In this document: in pieces, positions 32,487 through 64,000 of the stretch
Position numbering within the stretch: the first letter of the stretch is position 1
Layout of the letters: each line of letters opens with the position of its first letter
DNA from: Phycisphaerales bacterium
GTDB taxonomy: Bacteria; Planctomycetota; Phycisphaerae; Phycisphaerales; UBA1924
Reading direction: 5' to 3'
Assembly (NCBI GenBank): GCA_016742075.1
Contig: JACVCL010000003.1
Coordinates: forward strand, 20,087-84,086
Length of the DNA: 64,000 nucleotides
Position numbers and translations under genes: made by a program
Notes under the pieces: model-generated
Database searches by the model: none
What the model was told of the DNA's origin: nothing
The model's input: the letters and a program-made list of their open reading frames with translations, nothing else

Positions 32487-32501
32487 CCCCCACCCCCCCC
32501 C
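32487..32501. repeat. Homopolymer tract C5-A-C9 (G9-T-G5 on the coding strand of the locus)
   Basis: Read directly: ccccc a ccccccccc. It ends 1 nt before the pilin stop codon (tca at 32503-32505). Confidence 0.9.
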
Positions 32502-32502
32502 G

Positions 32503-32967: not shown

Positions 32968-33033
32968 GAGTCGCAAGCTCCTCGTCCGGCCTCCGCATCA
33001 CCACCCCGCCCCGCCGATCCCCACCATCAAGCC

Positions 33034-33059
33034 GATCGGGCCCCGCGAAGGGCCCGATC
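33034..33059 (-). promoter_or_regulatory. Intercistronic GC stem-loop between the two pilin genes
   Basis: Perfect 10-bp stem: gatcgggccc (33034-33043) pairs with gggcccgatc (33050-33059), with a 6-nt loop. There is no U-tract. Confidence 0.5.
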
Positions 33060-33086
33060 AGGGCGAAATTCCGTTATCCCCGGCTG

Positions 33087-33566: not shown

Positions 33567-33972
33567 GCTCCGAAACTCCTTCCACTGTGCCTTGGTCCCC
33601 AACGGGCCCGACCGGAGCCCCTCGGCGACGCTGCCTGCTGCCCGCGGCCCCGTCCCCTCCACGCACCGGGGTCCGGGCCGTCCTTCACTCGGCGGACGGT
33701 TCGTCAAGCAGCGTGACGCCGTGCGGCCGGCCCCGAACGCCGGGGCATCCGCAGACATCGACCGCGCACCGGCCGCGCTTCACCGCTCTCCGCAGCGCAC
33801 GCGACCGTTTGCCCCGGGGGCCCGCACAGCCGGCGCAGATCACCACCGAAGCTGCCAAATCAGAACGTCCGAGAGCCCCGCCGCGTCAAAAGGACCTCCT
33901 GCCTGATGCCCCCAAGGCCCGACACCCGGAGGAAACTCGGGGGATCACCGATCGCATGCCCGAGAGGCCATG

Positions 33973-45009: not shown

Positions 45010-45089
45010 GCGGGGTGTGCTGCGGCGATGCCGGGGTCAGGTGCCAGGGGCCCGGCCGGGGGCCGGGAACGCGGGAGCCGATGGACGGA

Positions 45090-46325
45090 TCAGAGGAGCG
45101 AGTTACGGACGCCGTGGTGGTAGTCTCGGATCGACGAGAGACCGGGCTGCGGGTTGGCGTACACATCGGTGTACAGCTCCTCCGCCGCCTCCGGAGACGG
45201 CGACTGCTCGGCGAACTCGACCGCCAGCCGCACCTCTTCCTTGATCTCCCGCTGCATGTCCTTGAACTGCTCTTCGCTCAGGCAGCCGCGGCCGAGGTGC
45301 CCCCCCACCGCCGGCTCGCCCTTGGGGGACATCAGCACCGCCGCGAGGCGGTCGATCGAGTCCCGCTCCTGGTACTTCTGCACCTCTTCCTTGGTGCGGT
45401 ACTTCTGCGGGTCCGACATCGAGTGGCCCTGGTAGCGGTAGGTCTTCAGATCGACGAAGCCGGGGCGCTGGTTCTCGCGGCAGCGGTCGGCGTAGGGCTT
45501 GAACTTGTCGTAAAGGCTCAGCAGATCGAGACCGTCGATCTCGATGCCCTCGATGCCGTAGCCCGCCGCCTTGAGGACGAGATTGTGGGCCATCGTCGTT
45601 CCGCGCTCGATGCTCGTGCCCATCGAGTAGCCGTTGTTCTCGACCACGTAGATCACCGGCAGGCCGAAGAGGCCCGCGAGGTTCAGGCTCTCGTGGAAGC
45701 AGCCCTGGTTCAGGGCGCCATCGCCCAGGTAGCACAGGCACACCTTCTTGCCCGCGGGCGTGCGAGGCCGATCGGCCGGGTGGCCCGAACCGTCGAGCAC
45801 CGGCGCGCCGGGGGCCTTGTTCAGCACCTCCCAGTCGTACCGGGCGGCGAACGCCAGGCCGGCGCCCAGGGCCGTCTGGGCCCCGACGATGCCGTGCCCG
45901 CCGTACAGATGATTCGGGCGGTCGAACATGTGCATGGACCCGCCCTTGCCCTTCGCGCAGCCGTGCAGCTTCCCGTACATCTCGGCCATGCACGCCTCGG
46001 GTGTCATGCCCCGGGCAAGAGCGTGGCCGTGGTCGCGGTACGCGGTCACCACGGGGTCGTCGTGGTTGACCGCGGCGAAGGTGCCCACCACGGTCGCCTC
46101 CTGCCCGATGTAGATGTGGCAGAAGCCACCGATCTTGGCCTGCTGGTACGCCGCCATCGTCCGCAGCTCGAACTCGCGGATCAGCATCATGTCCCTCAGC
46201 CAGCGGATCAACGTCGCGTCGGGGAGCAGCTGGCTCGGGGTGGGCGAGGAGCCCACCCGACCGGCCTGCTTGAGCGTTTCACTGGATGGCATCTTGGGCA
46301 TCGTCGGAGCGGTGGCTGCGGACAT
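45090..46325 (-). CDS. pdhA: Pyruvate dehydrogenase E1 alpha subunit
   Basis: It has IGGFCHIYIGQEA and the TPP motif YLGDGALNQG...VVENNGYSMGT. The start at ATG 46325 is uncertain. An insert of about 30 aa lies before the GDG motif. Confidence 0.8.
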   Translation of the reverse strand: MSAATAPTMPKMPSSETLKQAGRVGSSPTPSQLLPDATLIRWLRDMMLIREFELRTMAAYQQAKIGGFCHIYIGQEATVVGTFAAVNHDDPVVTAYRDHGHALARGMTPEACMAEMYGKLHGCAKGKGGSMHMFDRPNHLYGGHGIVGAQTALGAGLAFAARYDWEVLNKAPGAPVLDGSGHPADRPRTPAGKKVCLCYLGDGALNQGCFHESLNLAGLFGLPVIYVVENNGYSMGTSIERGTTMAHNLVLKAAGYGIEGIEIDGLDLLSLYDKFKPYADRCRENQRPGFVDLKTYRYQGHSMSDPQKYRTKEEVQKYQERDSIDRLAAVLMSPKGEPAVGGHLGRGCLSEEQFKDMQREIKEEVRLAVEFAEQSPSPEAAEELYTDVYANPQPGLSSIRDYHHGVRNSLL

Positions 46326-46535
46326 CGCGGGCCTCAGAGGGGGTGTGGTCACGGCGAAGAAATCGGCTCGATCAACGCGGTTCCACGGGGGGAACGGCCG
46401 AAACGGAACGGGCCACGAGCCGGGGCGAGCGAAAGACCCTCGCCCGTCGGCCGCGCTCGCCGGCGACCCGAACCGAACCGCGAAGTGTAAGCACAACGGT
46501 TGGGTGGGGCAAAGGGCGGGCCGTCCGGGTTTGGT

Positions 46536-49500
46536 TTATGTCAGGGCTCCATGCGGCTGAGCCATGACGGACGGCGCGGCGAAGCGGCGGCGGAGGATCG
46601 TCAGCAGGCTCTCCGGGTTCAGGAAGTTCGGAGGCGGCCGGAAGTAGACCTCCGCGAGCTTCTCGCCGGGCTTGGGACTCAGCGGCCGCACTGTGCCCTT
46701 CACGCCCTCCAGCGCCGCGGCCACCGCGGACACCGCGGCCGGATCGCAGCGCAGGATCACATCCTGCTCGTGCACGGCGATCGATCGAACGCCCCGCGCG
46801 TGCGCCCCGATCCGCAACTCGGCCAGTTCGAGCAGCCGCTGCGCCGGCTTCGGAGGCTGGCCGTAGGCCTGGCTCAAGTCGGCCACGACGGCCGCGAGCT
46901 GCTCCGGGGTGGCCGCCGAGACGATCCGGCGGTACGCCTCGAGGCGGCGCGTATCGGATGGGATATAGACCTTCGGCAGTTGCCCGGTAGCGCCGATGTC
47001 GATGGTGGTCTCCGACGGCTGGGCGGAGGGCTCGGACCGCAGCTCCCTCGCGGCCTGCTCGAGCAGCCGGCAGTACATGTCGTACCCCACCGCGGCGATA
47101 TGCCCAGACTGCTCGGCCCCGAGAAGGTTCCCCGCCCCGCGGATCTCCAGGTCGCGCATGGCGATCTTGAATCCCGCGCCGAGCATCGAGAACTCCTCGA
47201 TCGCCCGCAGACGGCGCGTGGCCGAGTCGGTGACCGGCCGGTCGGAGGGCAGAAGCAGGTAGCAGTAGGCGCGGTGCTTGTAGCGGCCCACGCGCCCGCG
47301 GAGCTGGTGCAGATCGGCCAGGCCGAAGTGATCGGCGTTGTTGATGAACATCGTGTTGGCCGTCGGGATGTCGATTCCCGACTCGATGATCGTGGTCGAT
47401 ACGAGGATGTCGGCCTCTCGCCCGATGAAGCGTCGCATGACGTCTTCGAGCTCGTCGTCGGGCATCTGGCCGTGGCCGATGACGATGCGGGCGCCGGGCG
47501 CCAGCCGCTGCACGTCGTCGGCCACGCTGCGGATGTTGTGCACGCGGTTGTGGACGAAGTAAACCTGCCCGTCGCGGTTGAGCTCACGGGCGATGGCCGC
47601 GGCGATCCGTCGCTCGTTGTAGGGGATCACCTCGGTGACCACGCTCCGGCGGTCCATCGGCGGCGTGGTGAGAGACGAGATGTCGCGCAGCCCGAGCATC
47701 GACATGTGCAGGGTCCGCGGGATGGGCGTCGCCGAGAGTGTGAGCACGTCGGCCGTCATCCGGAAGCCGAGAAGCGCCTGCTTGTGCTCGACGCCGAACC
47801 GCTGCTCTTCATCGATGATCACCAGCCCGAGGTCGGCAAAGCGGACGTCCTTGGATAGCAGCCTGTGCGTGCCGATGAGGATGTCCACCTGTCCCTTGCG
47901 CGTCGCGGCCAGGATCTCATTGCACTCTTTGCCCGTCTTGAACCGGGACACACTCGCGACCCGGAACGGGTAGTCCGCGAATCGTGCCCGGAAGGTCCGC
48001 TCGTGCTGCTCGGCCAGCAGCGTCGTGGGCACCAGCACCGCCACCTGCTTCCCGAACTCAACCGCTTTGAACGCAGCGCGGATCGCCACCTCGGTCTTGC
48101 CGTAGCCCACGTCGCCGCACAGCAGACGGTCCATCGGCCGCTCTCGCGTCATGTCCCGCTTGAGCTCGGCGATCGCCGCGAGCTGATCCTCGGTCTCCTC
48201 GTAGGGGAACTCGGCCTCGAACTCTTTCTGCCATGGGGTGTCGGCGGGGAAGCGGATGCCCGGCATGTGCTCGCGGGCGGCCTGGATCCGCAGCATCTCG
48301 GCCGCGAGGTCCCTGACAGACTCCTTGACCGCCTGCTTCTGAGATTGCCACCGCTTGCCGCCCAGCGGCGAGAGCGGCGGCGCGCCGCCGTGCCCGCCGA
48401 CGTACTTCTGCACGCGGTCGATCTGCGACACCGGCACGTGGAGCCGGGCCCCGGCCGCGAACTCCAGCGTCATGTACTCCTCGCCCTGCGGGTCGGCCCC
48501 CTCGCCGGGCTGGCCGTCGGCGGGCGCCGCCGTGGTGCGCGGGCCTTTGCGGTCGGCCTTGCCCGGGCGCAGAGGCGCGGGCTTGTTGCGGAGCAGGTCC
48601 GCCGCGTGCTGCTCGGCCGTGGGCTTGGGCCCGTGCGGCCGCATCGTCTTGAGCCCGGTGAAGCGTGCGATCCCGTGGTCGGAGTGCACCACGAAGTCGC
48701 CGACGGTGAGCTCGAGAAACGTGTCGGCCCCGCGCCCGGCCTTCAGCCGGCGGATTCTGCGGCGCGACTGGTACCGGTGCAGCAGCTCGTGGTACGGCAC
48801 AAGGGCGAGCGGGCGCTCTTCGGGCCCCCAGAGGAACCCGCGGTGCAGGTACGACCCATCGTGCTCGACCAGCGGCCCGCGCTCGCCGCCGAACTCCGCC
48901 AGCAGCTCACCGAGCCGCGATCGCTCGCCCTCGTTCTGGCAGAGCACCCGCACCCGGTGATCCGCGGTCATCGCCGCCAGTTCGGCGACGGCCTCTCCCG
49001 CGTCGCGGGCGAACTCGGGCAGCGGCCGCGCCGGCAGCTCGACGCGCACCGCGATATCCGGCGCCGCGGCCGAGAACTGGTTCAGTTCGGCGAAGCCCGG
49101 GAAACGCTCGCGCATGAGCCGGAAGACCGCCGGCGGGCCGAACACCCCCCGCGAGTCCGTCACTCGCTCGTAGTAGCCGCGGGCCTGCTCGGTGGTCTCG
49201 AGCGTTTCGATGAGCATCGCCAGCGTGTTCCGGGGCAAAAGATCGAGGAACGAGACGGTGTGCTCGTCGGACGCGACCGCCTCGAGCCGGGCGCCCACGA
49301 TCTCGGCCGACTCCAGACGCCTGTCCGATCCCATCGTCTCCAGGTCGATCTCGTGGATGGACTCCAGTTCATCGCCGAAGAAGTCGAGGCGGATGGCCGC
49401 CCCGCCGCTCTCGGCTCCGGCCGCGGGAGCGCTCTTCTCCGACGCCGCGCCGGGGGGGAACACGTCGAGGATCCCGCCACGGACCGCGAAGTCCCCCGGC

Positions 49501-50009
49501 TCTTCGATCGAGTCGCAGCGTCGGTACCCGGCCTGATCGAGCCACCGGGTCAGCGCGGTCAGTCCACGCCCGTCCCCCGGCCGCAGCACCAGCGACAGGG
49601 CGTCGAGCCGCCCCGGCGCCGGAACGGCCTGCATCAGCGACTGGATCGGGCACAGCAGCACCGCGGGCGGGCCGTCCGTGAGCACCCGCCGCACCACCGC
49701 CAGCCGCTCGGCGAACAGCTCGAGGCTGACCGCCGATTCGCCCGGGAGCAGTTCCAGGGCCGGCAGCCGCGCCGCGTCGACCCCCAGCGCGCTGAGCTCG
49801 TCGACGGCCTCGTCGGCATCGTCGAGGTGGGCGGTCACCACCAGCACCGGTCGCGCGGCGAGCCGCGCCACCGCGCCGGCGACCAACGCCGCGGACGAAC
49901 CCGCCGAACCGAATGCGCCCACTCGTTTGCCCTCGGCGAGCGCGCGCGCCAGCATCCGCACCGACTCGTGGGAAGCCACCAGATCGAGATGGGTCTGATC
50001 CGTGCGCAT
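46536..50009 (-). CDS. mfd: Transcription-repair coupling factor
   Basis: 1157 aa from ATG 50009. It has a UvrB-like N-terminus, a CarD-like domain (VGDFVVHSDHGIARF), the helicase motifs CGDVGYGKTEVA, DEEQRFG and TATPIPRT, and a TRCF C-terminus. Confidence 0.9.
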   Translation of the reverse strand: MRTDQTHLDLVASHESVRMLARALAEGKRVGAFGSAGSSAALVAGAVARLAARPVLVVTAHLDDADEAVDELSALGVDAARLPALELLPGESAVSLELFAERLAVVRRVLTDGPPAVLLCPIQSLMQAVPAPGRLDALSLVLRPGDGRGLTALTRWLDQAGYRRCDSIEEPGDFAVRGGILDVFPPGAASEKSAPAAGAESGGAAIRLDFFGDELESIHEIDLETMGSDRRLESAEIVGARLEAVASDEHTVSFLDLLPRNTLAMLIETLETTEQARGYYERVTDSRGVFGPPAVFRLMRERFPGFAELNQFSAAAPDIAVRVELPARPLPEFARDAGEAVAELAAMTADHRVRVLCQNEGERSRLGELLAEFGGERGPLVEHDGSYLHRGFLWGPEERPLALVPYHELLHRYQSRRRIRRLKAGRGADTFLELTVGDFVVHSDHGIARFTGLKTMRPHGPKPTAEQHAADLLRNKPAPLRPGKADRKGPRTTAAPADGQPGEGADPQGEEYMTLEFAAGARLHVPVSQIDRVQKYVGGHGGAPPLSPLGGKRWQSQKQAVKESVRDLAAEMLRIQAAREHMPGIRFPADTPWQKEFEAEFPYEETEDQLAAIAELKRDMTRERPMDRLLCGDVGYGKTEVAIRAAFKAVEFGKQVAVLVPTTLLAEQHERTFRARFADYPFRVASVSRFKTGKECNEILAATRKGQVDILIGTHRLLSKDVRFADLGLVIIDEEQRFGVEHKQALLGFRMTADVLTLSATPIPRTLHMSMLGLRDISSLTTPPMDRRSVVTEVIPYNERRIAAAIARELNRDGQVYFVHNRVHNIRSVADDVQRLAPGARIVIGHGQMPDDELEDVMRRFIGREADILVSTTIIESGIDIPTANTMFINNADHFGLADLHQLRGRVGRYKHRAYCYLLLPSDRPVTDSATRRLRAIEEFSMLGAGFKIAMRDLEIRGAGNLLGAEQSGHIAAVGYDMYCRLLEQAARELRSEPSAQPSETTIDIGATGQLPKVYIPSDTRRLEAYRRIVSAATPEQLAAVVADLSQAYGQPPKPAQRLLELAELRIGAHARGVRSIAVHEQDVILRCDPAAVSAVAAALEGVKGTVRPLSPKPGEKLAEVYFRPPPNFLNPESLLTILRRRFAAPSVMAQPHGALT

Positions 50010-50242
50010 GCGGAAGCCGGACCTCGGGCCTTCCGGCCCGGGCCGCGTCAACACTCCTGGGTCCAAGTGTACCTCGCCCCTCGTCCGCGCCGCCGCGCGG
50101 AACGTGCATGACGGCCCCCAGGGCCCTGCGCGTCTCCGTCTCACCCTCCGGGGCCGGAGGGGCGCGCTGGCGCCGTTAAACTGCCCGCCCGAACCTCGCT
50201 TCGGTCTGCCCCGTTCGCACCTGTAACCGCCGGAGTTCCCGA

Positions 50243-53200
50243 ATGACGCGTCCGCTGCTCGGCCTGACCCTCCTCGCCATGCTGCCCTGGCTCTCCACCC
50301 CCGCCCGTGCGGCCGACGACGTGATCCCGGGCACGCGCCCGGACGCGACGATGCTCCAGTACCCGGCGGTGAGCGCCGACAGCATCGTCTTCGTGTACGC
50401 CAATGATCTGTGGACGGTCCCTCGCGCCGGCGGCGTCGCCAAGCCGCTGGCCAGCCCCCCGGGGCCCGAACTGCTCCCCCGATTCAGCCCCGACGGCAAG
50501 ACGATCGCCTTCGTCGGAAACTACGACGGCAACCGCGACATCTACACCATCCCGGTGGCCGGCGGCCTCTCTCACCGCGTCACGCACCACCCGATGTCCG
50601 AGACGCTCTGGGGCTGGACCCCGGAAGGGAAGATCATTTTCTCGAGCGCCATGCAGGCCGGCATCGTCCGGGCCCCGCAGCTGTACACCGTCTCCCCCCA
50701 GGGCGGGCTGCCCGAGCGGCTGCCCGTGCCCTACGGCGCCGCCGGGGCCGTCTCGCCCGACGGACAGTGGCTCGCCTACACCCCGATCAACTCCGACTTC
50801 CGCACCTGGAAGCGCTATCGGGGCGGCATGGCCTCGCACGTCTGGCTGTTCAACATCAAGACGCTTCAGTCCCGCCGGATGACCGACTGGGAAGGCACCG
50901 ACACCCAGCCCATGTGGGCCCCGGGGCGAGCGGGCGAGCAGTCGGTCGTCTACTACCTCTCCGACGAGGGCCCCTCGCACCGGCTCAACATCTGGGCCTA
51001 CGACGTCGCCAGGTCGGCCAAGGAGCAGATCACCAAGTTCGATGACTACGACGTCAAGTGGCCGAGCATGGGCCCGGGCTCCGACGGCAAGGGCGAGATC
51101 GTGTTCCAGCACGGCCCCCGCATCTACCTGATGAGCCTCACGGATAAGCAGATCCGCCCCGTCGACATCGTCATCCCCGGCGACCGTCCCGCTCTCCGCG
51201 ACCAGAACGTCAACTTCGCCCGGTTCATCAGCAACGCCGGCGTCTCGCCCAAGGGCAAACGCCTCGTGGTGGAGGCGCGCGGCGACATCTGGAGCCTGCC
51301 GGCCCAGCGCGGCGTCTCGCGGAACCTCACCCGCACCAGCAACGCCGCCGAGCGAGACCCCTCGTGGTCGCCCGACGGCAAGCACATCGCCTACTTCTCC
51401 GACGCGACCGGCGAGTACGAGCTGTACCTCATGCCCGCGGAGGGCCCGGGCGAGCCGCGGAAGCTCACCGACTTCCAGGGCAAGGCCGGCTACCTCGCCA
51501 TGGGCAGCTGGTCGCCCGACTCCAAGCATCTCATCATCGCCGACAAGGCGGCGCGGATCTACCTGGTCACCCCGGGCGACGCAGGCCCGGCCGCCGAGGT
51601 TCGAGAGATCGCCAAGGACGAGTGGGCCGCCCGGCCGAATCCCGTCTGGTCGCACGACTCGCGCTGGCTCACGTTCACGCTCTCGCAGGAGAACCAGCAG
51701 GGATCGGTCTACCTCTACAACGTGGAGTCCAAGGAGCTCACCCGGGTCACCGACCCGTTCTTTGCGGCGTCCTCCCCCGCCTTCGACCGCAAGGGCGATT
51801 ACCTCTACTTCGTCCGGACCACGAACTTCTCGCCCACCTACTCCGACCTCGACACCACCTTCATCTACGACAACGCCGAACAGCTCTTCGTGGTACCGCT
51901 TCGGGCCGACATGAAATCGCCCTTCGCCCCCCGGAGCGACTCGGAGGCCGACGAGAAGGCCGAGAAGAAGGACGACAAGAAAGACGACAAGAAGGACGGC
52001 AAGAAAAAGGACGACAACGGAGAAGCCGCGGCCCAGGGGCCGGCCGGCTCGTGGTCCGGCACCTACACCGCCGAGGGGCAGGCGATCGCCTTCACCATGA
52101 CTGTCGCGGCCGACGGCGACTCGCTCAAGATCGAAGTGTCGGCGCTCGGACAGTCCCTCCCCGTCTCAGACATCTCGTGGGACAAGGCCTCGGGCGCCCT
52201 GTCGTTCACCGTGACCACGCCCGAGGGCAAGTCGAAGGTCAAGGGCACCATCAAGGCAGACAAGTTCACCGGCGAGTGGTCCGACGATCAGGGCCGCTCG
52301 GGCACGGTCTCGGCCGAGCGCTCGGGCGAGAAGGAGGGCAAGTCCGACACCGCCAAGAAGATCGAGCCCGTCAAGATCGACATCGAGGGCTTCGAGGCGC
52401 GGGCGATCCCGCTCCCGGTCCCGCCGGGAGGGTTCAACCAGCTCCAGGCGGGCGAGGGCACCAAGTTCTTCTACTTCCGTGCCGCGGGCCAGCCCAACCC
52501 GGACGACGATGAGCCCGTCGTCGGCGGGAGCATTCGGATGTTCGACGTCGGCGCCGAGGAGAAAGACCGCAAGGAGAAGACGGTGCTTGCGGGCGTCAAC
52601 AGCTTCGAGCTCACCGCCGACGCAAAGAAGATGCTCGTCCGGCGCGGGCAGGAGATGGCCGTCGTCGACGCGTCGCCCGGCCAGAAGCTCGATGACAAGG
52701 TCCCCACCGACAACATGCTCCACGCGGTCAGCCCGCGCCAGGAGTGGCGGCAGATGTTCGTCGAGGCCTGGCGCCTGCAGCGCGACTTCTTCTACGAGGC
52801 CAATCTGCACAACGTCGACTGGAAAAAGGTGCGGGAGCGGTACGAGGCGTTGCTCGAGGACTGCGCCTCACGCGACGACCTGGCCTACGTGATCCGCGAG
52901 ATGATCTCCGAGCTCAACATCGGACACGCGTACTACAACCCCGGCCCCACCGAGGCCGAGCCGTCGGTCTCGGTCGGCATGCTCGGCGCCGATTTCAGGC
53001 TCGCGTCCGCCGACGGCAAGACCGCCTACCAGTTCGCCCGCATCTACCGGGGCGCCGCGTGGGACGCCGACGCCCGGGGCCCGCTCAGCCAGCCCGGCGT
53101 CAACGTCAAGGAAGGCGACTTCCTGCTCGCTGTGAACGGCGTGGCTCTCGACACCGCCGAGGACCCGTGGGCGGCGTTCCAGGGCCTGGCCGGAAAGACG

Positions 53201-53971
53201 GTCTCGCTGACCGTCTCCGACAAGCCGCTGATCGACGCCACCGCGCGGGAGGTCATCGTCCGGCCCGCCGGCTCGGAGACGCCCATGCGCTACCGCGCGT
53301 GGATCGAGGCCAACCGCAAGCGCGTCGAGGAGAAGTCGGGCGGCAAAATCGGCTACATCTACGTCCCCAACACAGGTGTCGACGGCCAGAACGACCTCTT
53401 CCGGCAGTTCTACGGCCAGCGGGCCAAGCAGGCCCTGATCATCGACGAGCGGTGGAACGGCGGCGGCCAGATCCCCACCCGGTTCATCGAACTGCTCAAC
53501 CGTCCGCGCACCAACTACTGGGCCCGGCGCGACGGGCGCGACTGGCCTTGGCCCCCGGACAGCCACCAGGGCCCCAAAGCCATGCTCATCAACGGCTCGG
53601 CCGGTTCCGGCGGCGACATGTTCCCCGCGCTGTTCCGGCAGATGGGCATCGGCAAGCTCATCGGCCAGCGAACCTGGGGCGGCCTCGTCGGGATCTCCGG
53701 CAACCCCGGACTGATCGACGGCGCCGGCGTCACCGTCCCGACCTTCGGCTACTACAAGCTCGACGGAAACTGGGGCATCGAGGGCCACGGCGTCGACCCC
53801 GACATCGAGGTCGTCGACGACCCGTCGAAACTCGCGGCCGGCAACGATCCCCAGCTCGATGCCGCCATCGAGCACTTGCTCCAGGAGATCCAGCGCAACC
53901 CCTACACCCCGCCTGCCCGCCCGCAGGGACCCGACCGCGCGGGCATGGGCATCCCGCCGAACCAGCGGTAG
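50243..53971 (+). CDS. Tricorn protease homologue (beta-propellers + PDZ + S41 peptidase)
   Basis: 1242 aa with a signal peptide. It has repeated SPDG-type propeller blades, PDZ-like VNVKEGDFLLAVNG, and the S41 core IIDERWNGGG ... INGSAGSGGD ... GQRTWGG. Confidence 0.85.
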   Translation: MTRPLLGLTLLAMLPWLSTPARAADDVIPGTRPDATMLQYPAVSADSIVFVYANDLWTVPRAGGVAKPLASPPGPELLPRFSPDGKTIAFVGNYDGNRDIYTIPVAGGLSHRVTHHPMSETLWGWTPEGKIIFSSAMQAGIVRAPQLYTVSPQGGLPERLPVPYGAAGAVSPDGQWLAYTPINSDFRTWKRYRGGMASHVWLFNIKTLQSRRMTDWEGTDTQPMWAPGRAGEQSVVYYLSDEGPSHRLNIWAYDVARSAKEQITKFDDYDVKWPSMGPGSDGKGEIVFQHGPRIYLMSLTDKQIRPVDIVIPGDRPALRDQNVNFARFISNAGVSPKGKRLVVEARGDIWSLPAQRGVSRNLTRTSNAAERDPSWSPDGKHIAYFSDATGEYELYLMPAEGPGEPRKLTDFQGKAGYLAMGSWSPDSKHLIIADKAARIYLVTPGDAGPAAEVREIAKDEWAARPNPVWSHDSRWLTFTLSQENQQGSVYLYNVESKELTRVTDPFFAASSPAFDRKGDYLYFVRTTNFSPTYSDLDTTFIYDNAEQLFVVPLRADMKSPFAPRSDSEADEKAEKKDDKKDDKKDGKKKDDNGEAAAQGPAGSWSGTYTAEGQAIAFTMTVAADGDSLKIEVSALGQSLPVSDISWDKASGALSFTVTTPEGKSKVKGTIKADKFTGEWSDDQGRSGTVSAERSGEKEGKSDTAKKIEPVKIDIEGFEARAIPLPVPPGGFNQLQAGEGTKFFYFRAAGQPNPDDDEPVVGGSIRMFDVGAEEKDRKEKTVLAGVNSFELTADAKKMLVRRGQEMAVVDASPGQKLDDKVPTDNMLHAVSPRQEWRQMFVEAWRLQRDFFYEANLHNVDWKKVRERYEALLEDCASRDDLAYVIREMISELNIGHAYYNPGPTEAEPSVSVGMLGADFRLASADGKTAYQFARIYRGAAWDADARGPLSQPGVNVKEGDFLLAVNGVALDTAEDPWAAFQGLAGKTVSLTVSDKPLIDATAREVIVRPAGSETPMRYRAWIEANRKRVEEKSGGKIGYIYVPNTGVDGQNDLFRQFYGQRAKQALIIDERWNGGGQIPTRFIELLNRPRTNYWARRDGRDWPWPPDSHQGPKAMLINGSAGSGGDMFPALFRQMGIGKLIGQRTWGGLVGISGNPGLIDGAGVTVPTFGYYKLDGNWGIEGHGVDPDIEVVDDPSKLAAGNDPQLDAAIEHLLQEIQRNPYTPPARPQGPDRAGMGIPPNQR

Positions 53972-56125: not shown

Positions 56126-56231
56126 CGACCCATCCTAACCCACCGGAAACCGCCGGGGATCGAGCCCGTACCCTGTTGTTGCCAGATCGGCGTGTTCGTG
56201 CACAATGCCGGCTCGTGAGGACCGCTCCCGC

Positions 56232-57830
56232 ATGCTGAACTTCGCCGTCTTCGACGAGAGAGGCCCGGCCCCGGATGGGCCGCGTCGGCGTGCGCACCTG
56301 GCCGGGAAGCAGGGTGAGCACCTTCCCGCGACGATCGAGTACCGCGGCGGGGTGCTCTCATGCCGGAAGGCCTCGCCGGACGCCGCGGCCCTCTCAACCC
56401 AGTACGACGTCGGCCCGCTGGGTGTGCTCACCCTCCAGACCTGCCTGCTGCCCGACCGCGAACGCCCGTATCTGCTCGATCTCGAGCTGGCCCGGCACCG
56501 GATCATGCTGATCCTCAACAAGCTCGAGGACTGGGGAATGTCCACCCTGCCGGCGGACCACCCGGTGATGGCCGCGTTCGATCGCGCTCGCGAGCTGTTC
56601 ACCGCCTCGCTGGTCGCGCCCCACGCAGGGGACTCCTGGACGGTGGAGCAGGCGCGGCTGGCCCGGCAGTCGCTGTGCATGGCCCTCGAGGCGTCCGAGA
56701 GCCTGGCGGAGCTGCACGCCGAGCAGGCCCTTGAGGCACGCCTGACAACAGACCAGGAGGCTCCGGGCTTGGAGGGGCCGGCGGCCAACCTGCCTCGAAT
56801 CGGGTGCGTGGTGCACTCCGATCAGTTCAGCGAGCCGCTGCAGAAGGCACTGGCGTCGAGCGTCGACTTCATGGTGTGCTCGATGCGCTGGGCCCGGATC
56901 GAGCGGGAGGAAGGGCGGTTCGAGTTCACCGCCAAGGACCGGTGGATCGAGTGGGGTGTGCGCACCGCGAAGATGCCGGTGGTCTCGGCACCGATCATCG
57001 ACTTCAGCCCGCGTGCGCTTCCGGCGTGGCTCCACGTGTGGGAGCATGACTACGAGACGCTCCGGGAGTTCGTGTACGAGCACGTCAAGCGCGTGGTCAC
57101 CCGGTACCGACGAGCCATCAGCCGCTGGTCGGTGATTTCCGGGGTCCACCTCAACGAAGGAATGACCTTCACGATCGACCAGATGATCGACCTGACCCGC
57201 TTGGCGGTGCTGCTGGTCAGGAAGCTGCAGCCTCAGGCACGCGTGTTTGTCGATCTGGCTGCGCCGTTCGGCGAGCGGGCGCCCGGGGCCGTGGGGGCCA
57301 TCTCCCCGCTGCTCTATGCCGAGCTGTGCCTCGAATCGGGGGTGAATGTCGATGGATTCGGCCTTCGCATCCACATGGGAGACCACGCCACCGGGCGATC
57401 AACCCGCGATCTGATGCAGCTGGCCGATCTGCTGGACGCGTGCGCCGCGCTGGAGAAGCCGTTGCACATCGCGGCGCTCGGCGCTCCGAGCGGGCCCGTG
57501 CCCTCGCAGACGCCGGCGAGCCTGGAGACCAACCCGGGTGATGAGCTGCTTGAGCCGGGCTACTGGCGCAAGCCCTGGTCGCCCGAGCAGCAGGCGGATT
57601 GGCTCGGGCGCGCGGTCTCGATCTGCCTTGCGAGACCGTCGGTCCTGACGGTGTCGTGGCAGGCGCTCTACGACTCGGCGGTGGCGCCGGAGATGGTGAA
57701 CGGCGGCCTGATTGGGGCCGACGGGCGAGCCAAGCCGGCCCTTCGCACTCTCGCGGAGATCACCGCGGCCCTTCGCCAGCGGCGGGTGCCGGGACGGCCG
57801 GAGCGTCCGGCGGCCGCGGCCAGGGCGTGA
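56232..57830 (+). CDS. TIM-barrel glycoside-hydrolase-like protein (distantly GH10-like), function uncertain
   Basis: RWARIEREEGRFEFTAKDRWIEW...VKRVVTRYRRAISRWSVISGVHLNE loosely follows the GH10 W..iEp..G.f.f ... rY.g.i..WDVvNE pattern. The start could be 56232 or 56205. The family call is weak. Confidence 0.4.
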   Translation: MLNFAVFDERGPAPDGPRRRAHLAGKQGEHLPATIEYRGGVLSCRKASPDAAALSTQYDVGPLGVLTLQTCLLPDRERPYLLDLELARHRIMLILNKLEDWGMSTLPADHPVMAAFDRARELFTASLVAPHAGDSWTVEQARLARQSLCMALEASESLAELHAEQALEARLTTDQEAPGLEGPAANLPRIGCVVHSDQFSEPLQKALASSVDFMVCSMRWARIEREEGRFEFTAKDRWIEWGVRTAKMPVVSAPIIDFSPRALPAWLHVWEHDYETLREFVYEHVKRVVTRYRRAISRWSVISGVHLNEGMTFTIDQMIDLTRLAVLLVRKLQPQARVFVDLAAPFGERAPGAVGAISPLLYAELCLESGVNVDGFGLRIHMGDHATGRSTRDLMQLADLLDACAALEKPLHIAALGAPSGPVPSQTPASLETNPGDELLEPGYWRKPWSPEQQADWLGRAVSICLARPSVLTVSWQALYDSAVAPEMVNGGLIGADGRAKPALRTLAEITAALRQRRVPGRPERPAAAARA

Positions 57831-57832
57831 GC

Positions 57833-58207
57833 ATGGGCCGCGAGCAGCCAGCGCGATCGGGACCGGGCGTGCCCGATTGGACCCGCGGCCCGGCGAAGTT
57901 CGCGGCGGGCGTTGTCCTGGCGATCTTGACACTCGGTGGCGCGGCCCTGGGCGTCATGCGGACGGCCGGCCCCGCGCTGACCGCGGGGGAGTCGGGCCGG
58001 CTGTGCATCAACACGGCTACCGCGGCGGAACTCGATGCACTCCCGGGTATCGGGCCCACTCTGGCCGAGCGGATCGTGCGATGGCGGGAGAAGCACGGCG
58101 GGTTCGAGCGCGTGGAAGACCTGGCCCGCGTGGAGGGGATCGGAGCCCGCAAGCTTGAGCGGCTGCGCGGGGTTGTGCGAATCTCGCGGAAGGCCGAGGA
58201 ACGCTGA
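57833..58207 (+). CDS. comEA: ComEA-like helix-hairpin-helix DNA-binding protein
   Basis: Internal ATG 57833 of ORF 57599-58207, with a TM anchor. It has INTATAAELDALPGIGPTLAERIVRWREKHGGFERVEDLARVEGIG. Confidence 0.8.
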   Translation: MGREQPARSGPGVPDWTRGPAKFAAGVVLAILTLGGAALGVMRTAGPALTAGESGRLCINTATAAELDALPGIGPTLAERIVRWREKHGGFERVEDLARVEGIGARKLERLRGVVRISRKAEER

Positions 58208-61200
58208 TCAGCGCGGGGCTGTGGCCGCGGGCGCGGCGGGCTGAGCAGCGGCCGGCGCGTCGTTGACGTAACGGGGCGGCGCGCCCGCGACACCGGCCGC
58301 GCCGCCGGCGTCGATGCGCTTGATGAGGTCGTCGGCGGCAGCCTTGAGCTGTCGGTCAAAGGCGGCGCTCTCGTCCTCGGGGGTTTGGGGCACGGTGATG
58401 TCGGGCAGGGCGCCGTTGTTCTCGAGGTCGGTGCCGTCGGGGAGGAACCAGCCGCGCCCGGGGGTGCGGATGGTGGTGCCGTCGATGAGCCGCGCGGCGC
58501 CGGTGCTGATGACGCCGCCGTAGGTCTGCTGGCCCACGAGATTGCCCCGCTTGAGGGTCTTGAAGGCGTGGCTGACGATCTCGGCGTTGGAGAAGCTCTT
58601 CTCGTTGCAGAGCATGTTCACGGGCCGGGTGTAACGCTGGATGAACAGGCGGTCGCGCGGGTAACCGTCCGTGACGGCGGGGTCGGCCCCGCGGGACAGC
58701 GTGTAGGCGTGCGGGCGCACCATGATCGAGGCGAGGACCAGGTCGGCGGTCGAGCCGCCGCCGTTGTTTCGGACGTCGATGAGGAGGCCGTCCTTCCCGG
58801 CAGCGGCGGCGAAGAGGTCGCGTTCGAAGTCGACGAGCGACGCTTCGTCCATTCCGCGGATGTGCAGGTAGCCCAGCCGCCCCTTCGACCAGTCGTTGAC
58901 GAGGGCGGCGTTAGCGCGTGCCCAGGCGCGGTAGCGGAGGTCGGTCTCGGCGGCGCCGGAGATCGGGGTGGTCAGCACCCGGAGTTCCACCGGTTCTGGC
59001 GCGGCATCGAGCTTGCGGATGATGGTGAGGATCACCTCCTGCCCGGCGCGGCCGCGGAGGCGGCTCTCGACGGTGTCGCCCGGTCCAAAGGGCTGATCAT
59101 CCACGGCGGTGATGACATCGCCGGCCCGGAGCTGCATCTCGCCGCGGGAGGCCGGGCCGCGATCGATGACGCGGATCACCTCGAAGCCCTGCTCGGTGCG
59201 GCGGCTGTCGATGCCCAGCCGGCCGTTGGGCTGGATGTTGGGCTGAGGCTCGTCGGGGCTGGTGACGCCCATGTGCGAGGCGTTGAGCTCGCCGAGCATG
59301 CGGTTGGCCACGTAGTCGAACTCGTCGGCCGTGCGGCTCTTGCGGGCGAGCTCGTGGTATCGGCGGGAGACCAGGGCCCAGTCGAGGCCCTTCATGGTCG
59401 GGTGGTAGAACTGAAGGTCCATGATGCGGGCGGCCTCGAGGAACTTCTGCGAAGCCTGGGCCTGAAGGTCGATGCGGACCCGATCCTCGACGGGGAGCGA
59501 CTCGACCTTGCCCCCCTCGGGGCCCACGGTCCCGGCGCCGCCCTCGCGGACGAAGACGATCTTGTCGCCCGTGAGCGAGATCATCTGCACCGAGGCGGTC
59601 TCGTGGAGGCGTTTTTTGTCGGTGCCGTCCCACTTGACGGACCAGAGGGCCTCGCCGCCGTCGTTGGCGGTGTAGATGACACGATCGCCGCCCGGGGTCA
59701 TTTCCAGGTTCGACTTCGAGCCGCCGGCCGTCGTGATGCGGCGGAGGCGAAGGTAGGCGTCGTCGAGCGAGAGCTCGACCGGCTTGGAGGGCTTGGCGGC
59801 CTCGTCCTTGTCCTTGGGCTGGTCGGCCTTCGGTGTGTCGGATTTGGCGTCGGCCGCCGGGGCGGTGTCGGGCTTGGGCGCTTCAGCCTCGGGCTTGGCC
59901 GGCTCGGCGGGCTTCGGCGCGGCGGGCTTCCGGACCGGGGGAGGCTTGAGGCGTTTGGCGGCCTTGGCGGCCTCGGTGAAGTACTTCTCGAGGTCGCGCC
60001 CGGCGAGAGCCTCGAGGTCCTTGTCGAGAAACACGCCCCAGACCTCGAACTGCCGGCCGACTCGGTCGCTCAGGAAGGTGAGCACTTTGCCGTCGGACGA
60101 CCATCGCGGTTCGATGTCGGAGTCGGGATGCCGGGTGATGTTCACCGGCGGCGATGAACCGTCGGCGCGGGCGACCCAGATATCGCTGTTGTAGTCCTTA
60201 TCCTCGACTGCGTAGGCGAGGTGACGGCTGTCGGGCGACCAGCGGAGGCCGATGCTGAGGTCCCAACTCTTGAGGAGGCCTCGCTCGGCCTTGGAGGCCA
60301 GGTCGAGGATGACGATGTCGCCGCGGGTGCGGCGGAACGCCAGAGCCTTCCCGTCGGGCGACGGCACTGGGGCGCGGTCATTGAACGCGCTCTCGACGAC
60401 ATGCTCCACGGTGAAGCGGATGGCGTCGGTCCAGCGGTCGGTGTCTTTGTTCCCGGCCGGCGGGGCGTCCTTTTTCTCGCTGTCGCCCGCGGGCTCGCCG
60501 CCGGCCGCGGCGCCGGCGCCCGCCCCCCCCGCGCCGGCGGCGCCCGGGGGGCGGCGACGGACCTGGTCGGCGGCCGCGTCGACCGCGGATTCGGGGCCCT
60601 TCGGCTGGGACTGCGGCTCGGGCTTCGGCTCCGCGGCGGGCTTGGGCTCTTCGGGCTTAGCCGGCTCGGCGGACGGGGGGGGCGGGGCGGGCGAGGGCTC
60701 GGCTGGCTTGGGCTTGGTGGTCTTCTCGAAACTCTCGCGGACGTCCTTTCGGGTGAGCGCGACCGACGCGGCGTAGATCTGGTCGCGTCCGGGCTCGTCG
60801 CTGGTGAAGTACAGCCTCATGCCGTCCGGAGACCAGGCGATGTCGCGCTCCCGCGCGGGAGAGCGGGTGACCCGCCGGGTCGGCGAACCCTCTTCGACGG
60901 CGCGGACGTACACATCGCCGTACGCGACGACGGCGAGCGTCTTGCCGTCCGGGCTGAGCGCCGCCTCGCTGACGTCCCTCCCTATGGAGCGGAGCGTGAA
61001 GTTGTCGGTCTCGTCATCGGCGGCGGTCAGCGTGATGGGCGTCGGCTTGCCGTCGGGAAGGGCGAGGGTGTAGAGGGTGTCCCAGACCAGCACGACGGCG
61101 GTCTTGCCGTCGGCCGAGACGTCGAAGTCGACGACGTCGGCGTCGCGAAAATCGGTGAGGCGGCGAGACTTGCCCTCGGCCTGCTCGCGGTCGGCGAGAG

Positions 61201-61921
61201 TCATCGAGTACAGATTGACGACGCCGCCCTCGCGATCGGACGTGAAGATGATCTTCTGGGAGTCTCCGGCCCAGCGGGCCTTTCCGTCGTTGCCGGTCCA
61301 GGTGGTGTGTCGCTGGAAGGCCTTGTTGGCGAGGGTGAAGGTCCAGACGTCGCGGTTGTCGGGGCCGCGGTAGCCGCGGCGGAACCAGGCCGAGCCGCCC
61401 CGGCCGAAGAGCAGGGTTGCGCCGTCGGGGCTGATGCGCGGCTCGTGGCCGAAGGCGTCGTGCAGGCGGGTGGCGGGACCGCCGTCGACGGACACCGAGT
61501 AGGGCCGGACGTCGCGGTACACGTCGCCCTCGATGGAGGCGGAGAACAGGATGCGCTTGGAGTCGGGCGACCAGCCCGAGAGTGCCAGACGCTGATCTGT
61601 GCGCGTGACCTGCCGGGTGCCGGAGCCGTCGGCGTTCATGACGAAGAGGTTGGAGCCGCCGTCGCGGGTGCTGCTGAACGCGATGAGTCGGCCGTCGGGG
61701 CTCCAGGCGCTCAGCAGCTCGTTGGCGGGGTGGGCCGTGAGTCGGACGGCTTCGCCCCCGCGGGACGGGGCTTTCCAGAGATCGCCGCGCCAGGAGAAGA
61801 CGATTTGGGACCCGTCGGGGCTGATGGAGGGCGCCCGGGGGAGATCGACGGCGGCCGCGAGAGCGGGGCCGCCGATCGAGAGGACGGTCGTGATGAACGC
61901 CAAGATGAACGACAGCCGCAT
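58208..61921 (-). CDS. Beta-propeller (TolB-like) + PDZ + S41 family peptidase, tricorn-type architecture
   Basis: 1237 aa from ATG 61921 with a signal peptide. It has many SPDG blades, PDZ-like LRAGDVITAVDD, and the S41 core LIDVRNNGGG ... CNEKSFSNAEI ... GQQTYGG. Two Pro/Ala/Glu/Lys-rich inserts are present. Confidence 0.8.
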   Translation of the reverse strand: MRLSFILAFITTVLSIGGPALAAAVDLPRAPSISPDGSQIVFSWRGDLWKAPSRGGEAVRLTAHPANELLSAWSPDGRLIAFSSTRDGGSNLFVMNADGSGTRQVTRTDQRLALSGWSPDSKRILFSASIEGDVYRDVRPYSVSVDGGPATRLHDAFGHEPRISPDGATLLFGRGGSAWFRRGYRGPDNRDVWTFTLANKAFQRHTTWTGNDGKARWAGDSQKIIFTSDREGGVVNLYSMTLADREQAEGKSRRLTDFRDADVVDFDVSADGKTAVVLVWDTLYTLALPDGKPTPITLTAADDETDNFTLRSIGRDVSEAALSPDGKTLAVVAYGDVYVRAVEEGSPTRRVTRSPARERDIAWSPDGMRLYFTSDEPGRDQIYAASVALTRKDVRESFEKTTKPKPAEPSPAPPPPSAEPAKPEEPKPAAEPKPEPQSQPKGPESAVDAAADQVRRRPPGAAGAGGAGAGAAAGGEPAGDSEKKDAPPAGNKDTDRWTDAIRFTVEHVVESAFNDRAPVPSPDGKALAFRRTRGDIVILDLASKAERGLLKSWDLSIGLRWSPDSRHLAYAVEDKDYNSDIWVARADGSSPPVNITRHPDSDIEPRWSSDGKVLTFLSDRVGRQFEVWGVFLDKDLEALAGRDLEKYFTEAAKAAKRLKPPPVRKPAAPKPAEPAKPEAEAPKPDTAPAADAKSDTPKADQPKDKDEAAKPSKPVELSLDDAYLRLRRITTAGGSKSNLEMTPGGDRVIYTANDGGEALWSVKWDGTDKKRLHETASVQMISLTGDKIVFVREGGAGTVGPEGGKVESLPVEDRVRIDLQAQASQKFLEAARIMDLQFYHPTMKGLDWALVSRRYHELARKSRTADEFDYVANRMLGELNASHMGVTSPDEPQPNIQPNGRLGIDSRRTEQGFEVIRVIDRGPASRGEMQLRAGDVITAVDDQPFGPGDTVESRLRGRAGQEVILTIIRKLDAAPEPVELRVLTTPISGAAETDLRYRAWARANAALVNDWSKGRLGYLHIRGMDEASLVDFERDLFAAAAGKDGLLIDVRNNGGGSTADLVLASIMVRPHAYTLSRGADPAVTDGYPRDRLFIQRYTRPVNMLCNEKSFSNAEIVSHAFKTLKRGNLVGQQTYGGVISTGAARLIDGTTIRTPGRGWFLPDGTDLENNGALPDITVPQTPEDESAAFDRQLKAAADDLIKRIDAGGAAGVAGAPPRYVNDAPAAAQPAAPAATAPR

Positions 61922-62014
61922 GGCAGGCTCCGCGAGAGGAACGGAAACGGGCCGGCGGGATCTCCGGCCGATCTTCGCGGAACTATAACGGCAGCCCGGC
62001 CACACCCCGGCGGG

Positions 62015-64000
62015 CTAGAACGGCGGGATCGTCACGATCACCGTCTGTGAAAGGCTCACGCCGACCGGGGTGACGAAGACCATGATCTGCCCGCTGGTCG
62101 TCGTCGCGTTCGGTGCGGTGACACGCATGAGCCGCAGGTAGAACGCGCTGTCGCCGAAGAGCTGCGTGTTCTGCGTGGCAGGCGGGAACGCGACGCCGGG
62201 GGGCACGAACCAGACGGCGTTGAGCACCGGGCCCCAATCGCTGATGCCGAGCGGGGCGGTGTTGGTGCCGAGGAAGCCGATCGTCGAGGGGTTGATGGCC
62301 CCGATGCAGAGGTAGCTGTCGAAGGCGAGGCACGGGGCCGATCCGTTGCGGATGACAGGCGGGCCGTTGTCGGTGGCGGCGGCATGCTGGAAGATCGGCC
62401 CCGAGAACTGGATCTGCACGCCATCGCCCGCGCCCTGGCCCGATGCGACGACGCCGACGGTGTTCGGGGCCGACATCCGGATGTACAGGTCGGCGGTCTT
62501 GGTGCCGGCGAGGTTGACGGCGGGCCAGTCCTCATCGGCGTTCGCCGGCGCGTTGCAGGCGCCGTTGTCGATCGTCTTCCACACGGCCGTCACGCCGATC
62601 GGGCCGGTGGGGCCGGTTGACCCGGTCGGGCCGGTACTCCCAGTGGGGCCGGTGCTGCCGGTGGGACCGGTCGGCCCACTGGGCCCGCTCGGGCCCGAGG
62701 GTCCCGAGGGTCCGGATGGGCCGGTGGGGCCCGATGGGCCGCTGGGCCCTGAAGGGCCGCTGGGGCCGGAAGGCCCGGTGGACCCCGTCGGCCCGGTTCC
62801 GCCGCTGGGGCCGGAAGGGCCGGTTGAACCGGTCGGCCCGGTGCCGCCGCTGGGGCCCGTTGGCGGGTTGGAACCGCCGGTGGGCGTCTGCCAGCAGGAG
62901 GCGCAGTGCGGGACCTGCACGTTGACGGTTTGCACCACGCCGGCCGGGCCGACAGCCATGCCGACGGCGAGCGTGCCCGACAGGTTGGCCAGGCCCTTGG
63001 GGGCGGTGAACCGACCGAGGAAGACGTAGTACGCGTTGTCGCCGAACTGAGCCGGGTTCTGAACCCCTGTGACCTGAGACAGCGTGAACCAGAGCGAGCG
63101 GACCGTGGGCGACCACGGGACGGCGCTCGTGCCTTTCGGGTACACGATCGACACCGGGGCCGTGTTCAGCGCGAGGTAGGTGTCGAACCGGAGACACGGG
63201 TCGGAGGTCGGGCCGGGGAAGAGATCGTTGCCGAGAGTGTTCTGATACGGCGGCGCGGAGATCGACAGCCCCGGCGACTCGATGCCCGAGTCGACGGTGA
63301 GGACCCGGTCGGTGGTCTGCAGGCGCAGGTAGAGATCGTTGGTGAGGAACGATCCCTTGAGTGTTGGGCAGCCGGTGTTGTCGACCGGAACCCATGCCAC
63401 CCCCAGCCCCGACGAGGACGACCCGTTGTTGTTCGGGAACACCACGGGGCCGCCGCCACCGCCGCCGCCGCCCAATCCGCCGGAACCGGAGCCAGAACCG
63501 CTACCGCCTGATCCGCTCGAGCCCCCGGAGCCCCCCGACGATCCCGACCCGTTCCCGCCGCTGCCGCTGCCGGACGAGCCTGAACCGGATGAGCCCACTC
63601 CGCCGGTGCCGGTTCCGACCGTTCCGCCGAACTGGCCGCGGCCGGCCATCCAGTCGGAGAGCATCTGCCGGGCCTCGGGGGTGAGGTTCGAGTACTGGGC
63701 GAACGGGTCGTTGGACCCCGATCCGGAGCCGGCCTGCGCCGTTTGGCCGCGGCCTCGCGGCTGGTTGACGTTCAGCGGCTGGTACCCGGGGTTCGTCACA
63801 CCGTTCGACCCGACCCGGCCCGCGAACGGCCCGGCGACATTGCCCTGCGGCGCATTGACCTGCATCTTCCCGAAGTTGGTCTGGTCGGCGTTCGGAGTTC
63901 CCTGGGGCAGGGTCCCGGCGATGCTCCCGGTGATGCCCGGCGGGCGCCCCGATCCCGGGCCGCGGGCGTTCTGCTCGTTGTAGTTCCGAGGAGTGGTGGC
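62015..64000 (-). CDS. Collagen-like triple-helix repeat protein with duplicated flanking domain (5' partial in this window)
   Basis: The first in-window ATG is at 63865, but I translated the same frame upstream to position 64000 and found no stop codon. The ATG-defined N-terminus also has no signal peptide, so the gene probably starts beyond the window. It contains a Gly/Ser linker, domain A, 29 G-X-Y triplets and domain B. Confidence 0.75.
62597..62857 (-). repeat. Coding G-X-Y (collagen-like) triplet array, 29 uninterrupted triplets
   Basis: [27 protein letters not shown] (GPS)5 GPT (GPS)5 GPT GPT (GST GPT)3 GPI. It includes an imperfect 45-nt direct duplication ([15 protein letters not shown] x2) and is encoded with mixed synonymous codons. 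Confidence 0.9.
63449..63625 (-). repeat. Coding Gly/Ser-rich low-complexity linker ending in a Gly8 run
   Basis: [59 protein letters not shown]. Confidence 0.85.

Follow-up and report, generated by a model that had tools for sequence, protein, structure and literature searches.

The window analysed here is a stretch of 64,000 nucleotides from a Phycisphaerales bacterium (contig JACVCL010000003.1), and the gene in question lies on the minus strand at its far end, where it encodes a protein with two paralogous domains (A and B) separated by a collagen-like run of G-X-Y triplets. The reading frame is uninterrupted from position 64000 to a TAG stop codon (62015–62017, minus strand), with no in-frame stop up to the window edge. 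The only ATG available to this frame within the window is at 63865. Because the frame is stop-free at the edge and a protein starting at 63865 would lack the N-terminal anchor typical of its relatives, the gene most likely continues past 64000.

Read from the N-terminal side, with all features on the minus strand, the visible protein begins with a low-complexity fragment rich in N, Q, G and P (63713–64000), the true start of which is outside the window. It is followed by a short amphipathic motif of 30 amino acids (aa; 63623–63712) that is family-typical before the G-rich linker, and by a 58-aa low-complexity Gly/Ser linker (63449–63622; 33 G, 18 S) that ends in G8 (GGGGGGGG). Domain A, the first beta-sandwich copy, occupies 62891–63406 including a C-terminal VPHCASCW tail (independent E-value to the family hidden Markov model, i-E, 1.6e-51). 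An 11-aa connector (62858–62890) leads from domain A to the run of 30 uninterrupted triplets (62588–62857), and domain B, the second copy, extends from 62018 to 62596 (i-E 1.6e-55). The protein terminates in …VTIPPF without a sorting tail, and the elements of a PEP-CTERM tail (PEP motif, hydrophobic helix and basic tail) are absent from this C-terminus.

An earlier note on this sequence had described a G/S linker ending in G8, domain A, the triplets and domain B, and all four were found where it had placed them. The boundaries required some adjustment. The note counted 29 triplets, and 29 do end at 62597, but the run itself comprises 30, the 30th (GVT) being the first strand of domain B; domain A, placed at about 62906–63400 by the note, spans 62891–63406 in our annotation. 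The proposed homology between A and B was borne out by pairwise alignment (34% identity, E = 3e-16), which contained every motif that had been listed: W..[VI]DN..C, DLY[LI]R, PCL.FD[ST]YL, WF, QN...FGD[NS]A[FY]Y, R[FV]TAP and QTV.V.[VI]P.

In the triplet run, the X position is Pro in 22 of 30 triplets, the Y position is Thr in 16 and Ser in 13, and charged residues are completely absent. The run scored 38.7 bits with the Pfam Collagen model (PF01391; gathering cut-off 27.2 bits, E = 8.5e-10). Shuffling the 101-aa linker 100,000 times gave G-x-x runs of at most 12, compared with the 30 observed, indicating that the G-X-Y run is non-random. Tandem Repeats Finder (TRF) reported periods of 9, 18, 36 and 45 within it. 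The NCBIfam models SclB, Lcl and SclA also matched (E = 4e-15 to 6e-9), but to the repeat only and with scores (55.5, 45.7 and 36.0 bits) far short of their cut-offs (325, 500 and 400). No known collagen-nucleating domain was found in the protein by Pfam, NCBIfam or Foldseek searches with A and B, and the Pfam scan turned up no glycosyltransferase among the 21 window genes that it covered.

The run draws on diverse codons (four for Gly, four for Pro and, for Ser, both families), while the amino-acid repeat is kept. We considered this synonymous diversity as a sign of selection for a triple helix and rejected it, because the ortholog at locus L001, in another Planctomycetota genome, contains non-collagen linkers, (GD)28, P19 and (GGNNS)5, with equal synonymous diversity and perfectly kept amino-acid repeats. 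Codon diversity says only that the composition of the spacer is maintained. In addition, rare codons were commoner in the run than in the neighbouring tricorn-like protease gene: GGG accounted for 9 of 30 Gly codons versus 15 of 110, CCT and CCA for 5 of 22 Pro codons versus 7 of 99, and TCA occurred three times versus once. This excess fits a pressure to keep the DNA non-repetitive.

A small family with a hypervariable interdomain spacer

To collect relatives, a family profile built from A and B was scanned with HMMER against the full set of 1.84 billion protein representatives. The scan yielded 88 cluster representatives at E ≤ 1e-3, 62 at E ≤ 1e-10 and 25 at E ≤ 1e-30. A word-indexed homolog search returned no proteins with A and B and one protein with a 41-sequence profile; the family thus surfaced solely through the full HMMER scan. 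All of the named members were annotated as "hypothetical protein" and came from metagenome-assembled genomes (MAGs) of Phycisphaerales or Phycisphaeraceae. A genome scan located a further family locus, L001, in a Planctomycetota MAG. Exactly two domain copies were present in 43 of the 88 representatives and three copies in one; together with the L001 protein, the 43 make 44 two-copy relatives of the window protein.

The full-length members are built alike: an N-terminal hydrophobic helix and a disordered region come first, then an amphipathic motif and a G/S/N linker with a poly-G end, and finally the two domains, A before B, with a spacer between them. The hydrophobic helix was found within the first ~25 residues (mean Kyte-Doolittle value ≥1.9) in nearly all of them, and it is followed by 150–330 aa of disordered sequence that often contains an E/R/Q-rich helix. 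The pre-linker position is occupied in relatives by PPTLADIIRQNPWLADYAPGG, DPFANFDPNVPPSMEQIEALARAFG, DPFADIIPDSLPPELRALIADLL and similar sequences, and most of them have a G/S/N-rich linker, with poly-G at its end, ahead of domain A. The window protein has the pre-linker motif, the G-rich linker and both domains, and is therefore a member of this family. By analogy with its relatives, a membrane anchor is expected in the part of the protein that lies outside the window.

The main comparative result concerns the segment between A and B. In relatives, this position contains D/G-rich, P/T-rich, G/N-rich or G-rich tracts, poly-Pro, TSP_3 repeats or folded inserts, and its length ranges from 39 to ~300 aa. 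The L001 ortholog carries (GD)28 followed by P19, and inserts of ~270 aa with dockerin-like repeats were found in some relatives. Collagen triplets were present at this position in none of the 44 other multi-copy relatives, in which the longest G-x-x run was 10 and consisted of poly-G. These results indicate that the collagen-like run is a lineage-specific filling of a hypervariable spacer and not a defining feature of the family. Such variable low-complexity tracts, whose amino-acid repeats are maintained with synonymous codon diversity in the window protein and its L001 ortholog, resemble the interdomain linkers of secreted multidomain proteins, for example the P/T-rich and G/S-rich ones found in glycoside hydrolases and in cellulosomal proteins. 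The tract in the window protein differs from ordinary linkers in being strictly 3-residue periodic over 30 units and in passing the Pfam Collagen threshold.

The family gene is flanked by the same genes in L001 and in L003/L004. Compared with L001 and L003, the neighbouring proteins are 82–83% (pyruvate dehydrogenase [PDH] E1-beta), 60–65% (E1-alpha), 53–57% (tricorn-like protease) and 54% (Mfd) identical, whereas the family domains are merely 33–41% identical. Because its neighbours are orthologous and its own domains have diverged to this extent, the family gene is a vertically inherited, fast-evolving positional ortholog and not mobile or phage cargo. The orthologous position near PDH E1 and tricorn holds within this subclade but not for the more distant member P0013.

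Several further features were observed among the relatives. In the N-terminal regions of P0001, P0011, P0014 and others, a conserved segment rich in E, R, Q and A (e.g. QLEQRRQELEAARRQR; EAERRAEAAQERRRQAREEAMRAREDARARRQR) has no hydrophobic heptads and looks like a single alpha-helix spacer of the ER/K type and not like a coiled coil; the counterpart of this segment in the window gene falls outside the window. A subfamily of proteins of ~1000 aa (P0008, P0009, P0015, P0016, P0024 and others) shares the conserved N-terminal sequence MNRLLWATIAGLxLGAxxFGMMQRGC, possibly a lipoprotein-like signal. The same subfamily contains the ~270-aa insert between A and B, and dockerin/EF-hand-like repeats occur both after the insert and after domain B. 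In a Chthoniobacterales (Verrucomicrobiota) MAG, one domain copy closely resembling domain B of P0023 was found at a contig end (locus L002, 9470–10480, plus strand). The genes upstream of it are unrelated and lie on the opposite strand, and this copy may represent a truncated gene or a chimera produced in binning or assembly.

Predicted fold and cellular location of the domains

The earlier note had been unable to name the domain, and it stayed unrecognised throughout our searches. Domains A and B alone gave zero matches in Pfam, NCBIfam and PHROGs. When 41 family members were individually compared with Pfam at E ≤ 5, no recurrent family appeared, and the best match of the 41-sequence profile to all PDB sequences was a legume lectin with a non-significant E-value of 0.06. 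A literature search found nothing on this domain family. AlphaFold2 produced a confident model of domain B from the 41-sequence alignment (predicted local distance difference test [pLDDT] 89.8, predicted template-modelling score [pTM] 0.88), and the modelled fold is a beta-sandwich, mostly beta with short helices. Foldseek comparison of the domain model returned nothing from the PDB at E ≤ 0.001 and no match in BFVD with a template-modelling (TM) score above 0.30, and overall TM-scores were about 0.3 or less.

The nearest neighbours in these searches, although weak, were Ig-like domains of bacterial adhesins and pilins, namely FnBPA, SdrG, AspA, CNA, BslA/YweA and the CLIPPER domain of a fibrillar adhesin. 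They ranked at the top of the Foldseek results with TM-scores of 0.13–0.37, compared with the superposition criterion of >0.5. When the two-domain model was used, domains of MSCRAMM-type adhesins (FnBPA/SdrG N2N3, CNA and the C-terminal domains of antigen I/II) were the top neighbours (E = 3e-4 to 4e-3). These proteins share with the window protein two consecutive beta-sandwiches in a tethered, repeat-rich surface protein, but the TM-scores of 0.13–0.20 and identities of 7–10% amount to a class resemblance only, the anchor of the window protein is expected at the opposite end (an N-terminal membrane helix, by homology, and not a C-terminal LPXTG), and nothing points to a dock-lock-latch mechanism in it. 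The best match to a single domain was TTHA1873 of Thermus thermophilus (PDB 7wrk; E = 1.1e-3, probability 0.84–0.97), which is also a small beta-sandwich. This match had TM-scores of 0.24–0.28 in the comparison of the domain model with the PDB and of 0.24–0.37 overall, a root-mean-square deviation >10 Å and 14–15% identity, so that it demonstrates no homology, and as a hypothetical protein TTHA1873 adds no annotation.

Both window domains contain two conserved cysteines, one in the DN..C motif and one in PCL.FD. Among the family's domain copies, the two co-occur strongly: both were present in 90 copies, neither in 23 and only one in 10 (Fisher's exact test, p = 1.8e-17). This is the pattern that a disulfide, and hence an oxidising compartment, would produce. 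Acidic and polar positions conserved in the family are the D of DLY, a Q, the D of FDS, the D of FGD, an R and a T, and a CxxC[WFL] tail is found in about half of all domain copies.

The company that the domain keeps in other proteins points in the same direction. Relatives pair it with dockerin, TSP_3 or FG-GAP modules, and short, distant relatives with a single domain end in PEP-CTERM- or MYXO-CTERM-like tails. Taken with the cysteine pair and the N-terminal anchor of relatives, these sequence features suggest that the window protein is extracytoplasmic and tethered, which makes the surface or envelope location proposed by the earlier note plausible. At locus L008 (340–3536, plus strand), four tandem genes each encode a signal peptide and a single domain copy, and a PEP-CTERM-like tail was present in P0066 and P0080, the two proteins whose sequences were read. 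The tandem indicates that the domain occurs in stand-alone form as well, as a small secreted protein with a local expansion. A match to EDSAP-1 PEP-CTERM (E = 0.0044) was a weak lead and was dropped.

Interpretation of the heads and the spacer

We consider it probable that the window gene encodes a membrane-tethered, extracytoplasmic protein with two heads, in which the novel, disulfide-stabilised beta-sandwiches are probably binding modules and the G-X-Y run is this lineage's spacer. The gene is the local ortholog of a small, fast-evolving and unannotated family of Phycisphaerae-type Planctomycetota, and in this model everything beyond the anchor would lie outside the cytoplasm. The two paralogous sandwiches, probably stabilised by disulfides, would act as the functional heads and most likely serve in binding or adhesion, and the low-complexity segments would be extended spacers that set the reach of the heads. 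What the results establish is the architecture, the homology of A and B, membership of the family, the variability of the spacer, the orthologous position and the class of fold, whereas the anchor, the extracytoplasmic location, the binding function and the role of the spacer are inferred. The GP[ST] run would be the lineage's version of the hypervariable A–B spacer, derived from expansion of a short 3-residue-periodic (9-nt) unit. It would work as an extended proline-rich spacer, and could add a triple helix if three chains were held together.

Several points weigh against this interpretation. The window ends before the N-terminus, and hence before the putative anchor. The assignment of the heads as binding or adhesion modules is a class-level guess, given that the TM-scores of the structural models to adhesin domains are just 0.13–0.37. 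Thirty perfect, BclA-like triplets could reflect a real structural requirement instead of a mere spacer. Finally, the amino-acid repeat is maintained despite synonymous codon diversity, but the L001 linkers behave alike, so that this point does not discriminate.

The earlier note had proposed a trimeric stalk with globular heads at both ends. In its full form, this is an obligate homotrimeric collagen stalk of the BclA or Scl type, a rod of ~26 nm with three A and three B heads at its opposite ends, which would form a surface fibre or adhesin and might be O-glycosylated on Thr and Ser. The collagen-like region of BclA, from the Bacillus anthracis exosporium, is rich in GPT and GPS, and the likeness to the window protein extends from these triplets without charge to the all-beta globular domain on their C-terminal side and to Ser/Thr at the Y position as potential O-glycosylation sites. 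In principle, a triple helix could be nucleated, as in BclA, by a beta-sandwich that follows the run immediately on its C-terminal side, and the 30 uninterrupted triplets above the Pfam cut-off, with their periodicity kept across so many codons, are what such a stalk would show. However, the head of BclA is a C1q/TNF-like jelly-roll trimer, and neither C1q/TNF nor any other known nucleation fold, including Pfam BclA_C/C1q, was matched by the domains in Pfam or Foldseek; BclA has one head and an exosporium-targeting N-terminus, whereas the window protein carries a head on either side of the repeat, the two being paralogous, and by homology would be anchored at its N-terminus; and orthologs of the window protein have no collagen region at all. 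Scl1 and Scl2 of Streptococcus pyogenes and Lcl of Legionella resemble the window protein in being bacterial surface-type proteins with a long G-X-Y run, but the window protein has no N-terminal V domain or LPXTG, ends in IPPF, comes from a Gram-negative-type planctomycete and matches the curated models, far below their cut-offs, with its repeat only. Because the spacers of the 44 other multi-copy members are incapable of forming triple helices, trimerisation is not a property of the family, and the argument from codon diversity fails in the L001 control. The free fibre with heads at both ends is likewise not established, since the layout of relatives runs from membrane through linker, A and spacer to B. 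We therefore regard the trimeric stalk as unlikely. A further point against it came from an AlphaFold2 monomer model of A, the run and B (472 aa, 23 sequences), in which pLDDT was ~90 for both domains and <50 for the repeat, and pTM was 0.61. By our own arithmetic, a pTM of ~0.38 would be expected for two independently placed domains of ~180 aa, and the higher value is a hint that A and B are placed relative to each other. If this intramolecular contact is real, the chain that makes it cannot also contain a straight rod of ~26 nm, which leaves a flexible loop or an intermolecular pairing of A with B. The flexible loop corresponds to a pseudo-dimer, in which A and B form one composite head within a chain and the G-X-Y run is a long flexible or polyproline II loop, perhaps glycosylated, without a triple helix. 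We hold this to be possible, if on balance doubtful. The pTM exceeds the independent-domain estimate even though ~100 residues have pLDDT <50, the unconstrained length and composition of the spacer across the family are loop-like, and long members always carry A together with B, with exactly two copies in 43 of the 44 multi-copy proteins. On the other hand, the contact is deduced from one value, obtained with an alignment of 23 sequences, spurious packing of homologous domains is frequent in AlphaFold models, and single-domain relatives exist, so the domain can stand alone.

The remaining readings have considerably less in their favour. It is quite improbable that the heads are carbohydrate-binding modules, lectin-like and related to legume lectins. 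The best PDB profile match was the legume lectin FRIL (9vbz), with 'PCLEFDSYL' of the family aligned to 'VAVEFDTYL' of the lectin; the acidic and polar residues that the family conserves would be suitable for binding a metal or a sugar; and a GH10-like gene is located 4 kb away. Yet the FRIL match covered 65 columns only, no ConA-like or legume-lectin structure was among the top 50 Foldseek results, and no Pfam lectin or carbohydrate-binding match was found in any of the 41 members, even at E ≤ 5. With no significant profile or fold match, we rejected both the lectin reading and the C1q/TNF reading; the earlier note had named a C1q/TNF or phage tail-fibre tip identity of A and B as its own refuting test, and the outcome was negative. 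An origin from a prophage or phage, as a tail fibre whose shaft is collagen-like and whose tip binds a receptor, can be considered extremely improbable. The whole protein matches 23 PHROG families, mostly annotated 'tail fiber protein' (best E = 4.3e-28), but every match falls within aa 335–531, with the G-X-Y run at the centre, and none was obtained for A and B by themselves. In addition, no BFVD fold match had a TM-score above 0.3, no relatives were found in IMG/VR contigs, and the neighbourhood consists of housekeeping genes (PDH E1, Mfd, SAICAR synthase and tricorn proteases) that are syntenic across genomes. The tail-fibre reading was rejected on these grounds, and the PHROG 'tail fiber' and Scl/Lcl matches serve as a caution that such matches can be purely compositional, as they are here. 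Finally, in a reading to which we give very little credence, A and B, which the AlphaFold2 model seems to set against each other, would be self-complementary, and in this lineage a stiff, collagen-like and possibly triple-helical spacer would block their pairing within a chain, so that A heads of one membrane-tethered molecule would bind the B heads of neighbours to build a head-to-tail lattice or fibre. If this were true, the protein would be a previously undescribed scaffold of the Phycisphaerae envelope, with a conserved core genomic position and a spacer chemistry tuned lineage by lineage.

Returning to the tethered two-head protein with a variable spacer, collagen-like bacterial surface proteins and low-complexity spacers are already known as kinds; what is new is the head domain, the two-head layout and the replacement of other spacers by a collagen run at an orthologous position. 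The results define an unannotated and structurally unmatched beta-sandwich family, with 88 clusters among 1.84 billion proteins and no Pfam or NCBIfam model, in the Phycisphaerae, the source of the named members and a group with poorly known envelope biology. The family also constitutes a natural experiment on interdomain spacers, in which one orthologous site is variously filled by collagen, (GD)n, poly-Pro, P/T, G/N, TSP3 or folded inserts. If the run does form a triple helix, it would illustrate the de novo origin of a bacterial collagen out of a linker of low complexity within a pre-existing protein.

Genomic neighbourhood

Downstream of the family gene, a gap of ~95 nt separates it from the gene for a tricorn-like protease (58208–62005, minus strand), and a GC-rich hairpin with a T-containing tail in this gap (61950–61969, minus strand) is terminator-like, as a consensus match only. 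The protease contains PD40 propellers, Tricorn_C1, PDZ and Peptidase_S41 domains, as does its paralog at 50243–53971 (plus strand), and each of the two has a distinct ortholog in L001 or L003 (53–57% identity). Adjacency of the family gene to a tricorn gene was observed in the window and in L001, and at a distance of three genes in L003. We considered and rejected a functional coupling to the adjacent protease, because the adjacency is absent for P0013 and P0009 and the hairpin lies between the genes; the adjacency is read as inherited synteny. The protease at 58208–62005 also has long low-complexity inserts rich in P, A, E and K (e.g. KPKPAEPSPAPPPPSAEPAKPEEPKPAAEPKPEP). The GTG at 62005, listed as its start, is probably incorrect; the likely start is the ATG at 61921, which opens the signal-peptide-like sequence MRLSFILAFITTVLSIGGPALAAA.

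Farther along the window, PDH E1-beta and E1-alpha (43909–46496) and Mfd (46536–50144) are encoded on the minus strand. This group flanks the family gene in L001, L003 and, in part, L005, inverted relative to the window. The GH10-like gene (56205–57830, plus strand) and a ComEA-like helix-hairpin-helix (HHH) open reading frame (57599–58207, plus strand) overlap by ~230 nt at the 3′ end of the former, in different frames, and one of the start calls is probably too far upstream. The SAICAR synthase gene lies between the first tricorn-like protease gene (50243–53971) and the GH10-like gene. A cluster resembling a type IV pilus or type II secretion system occupies 23202–33758 on the minus strand. 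It includes genes for a secretin (25971–28154), PilN (29424–30119), PilM (30116–31300) and an N-methyl pilin-like protein (33087–33758), all on the same strand, together with a TPR protein and a PAS histidine kinase.

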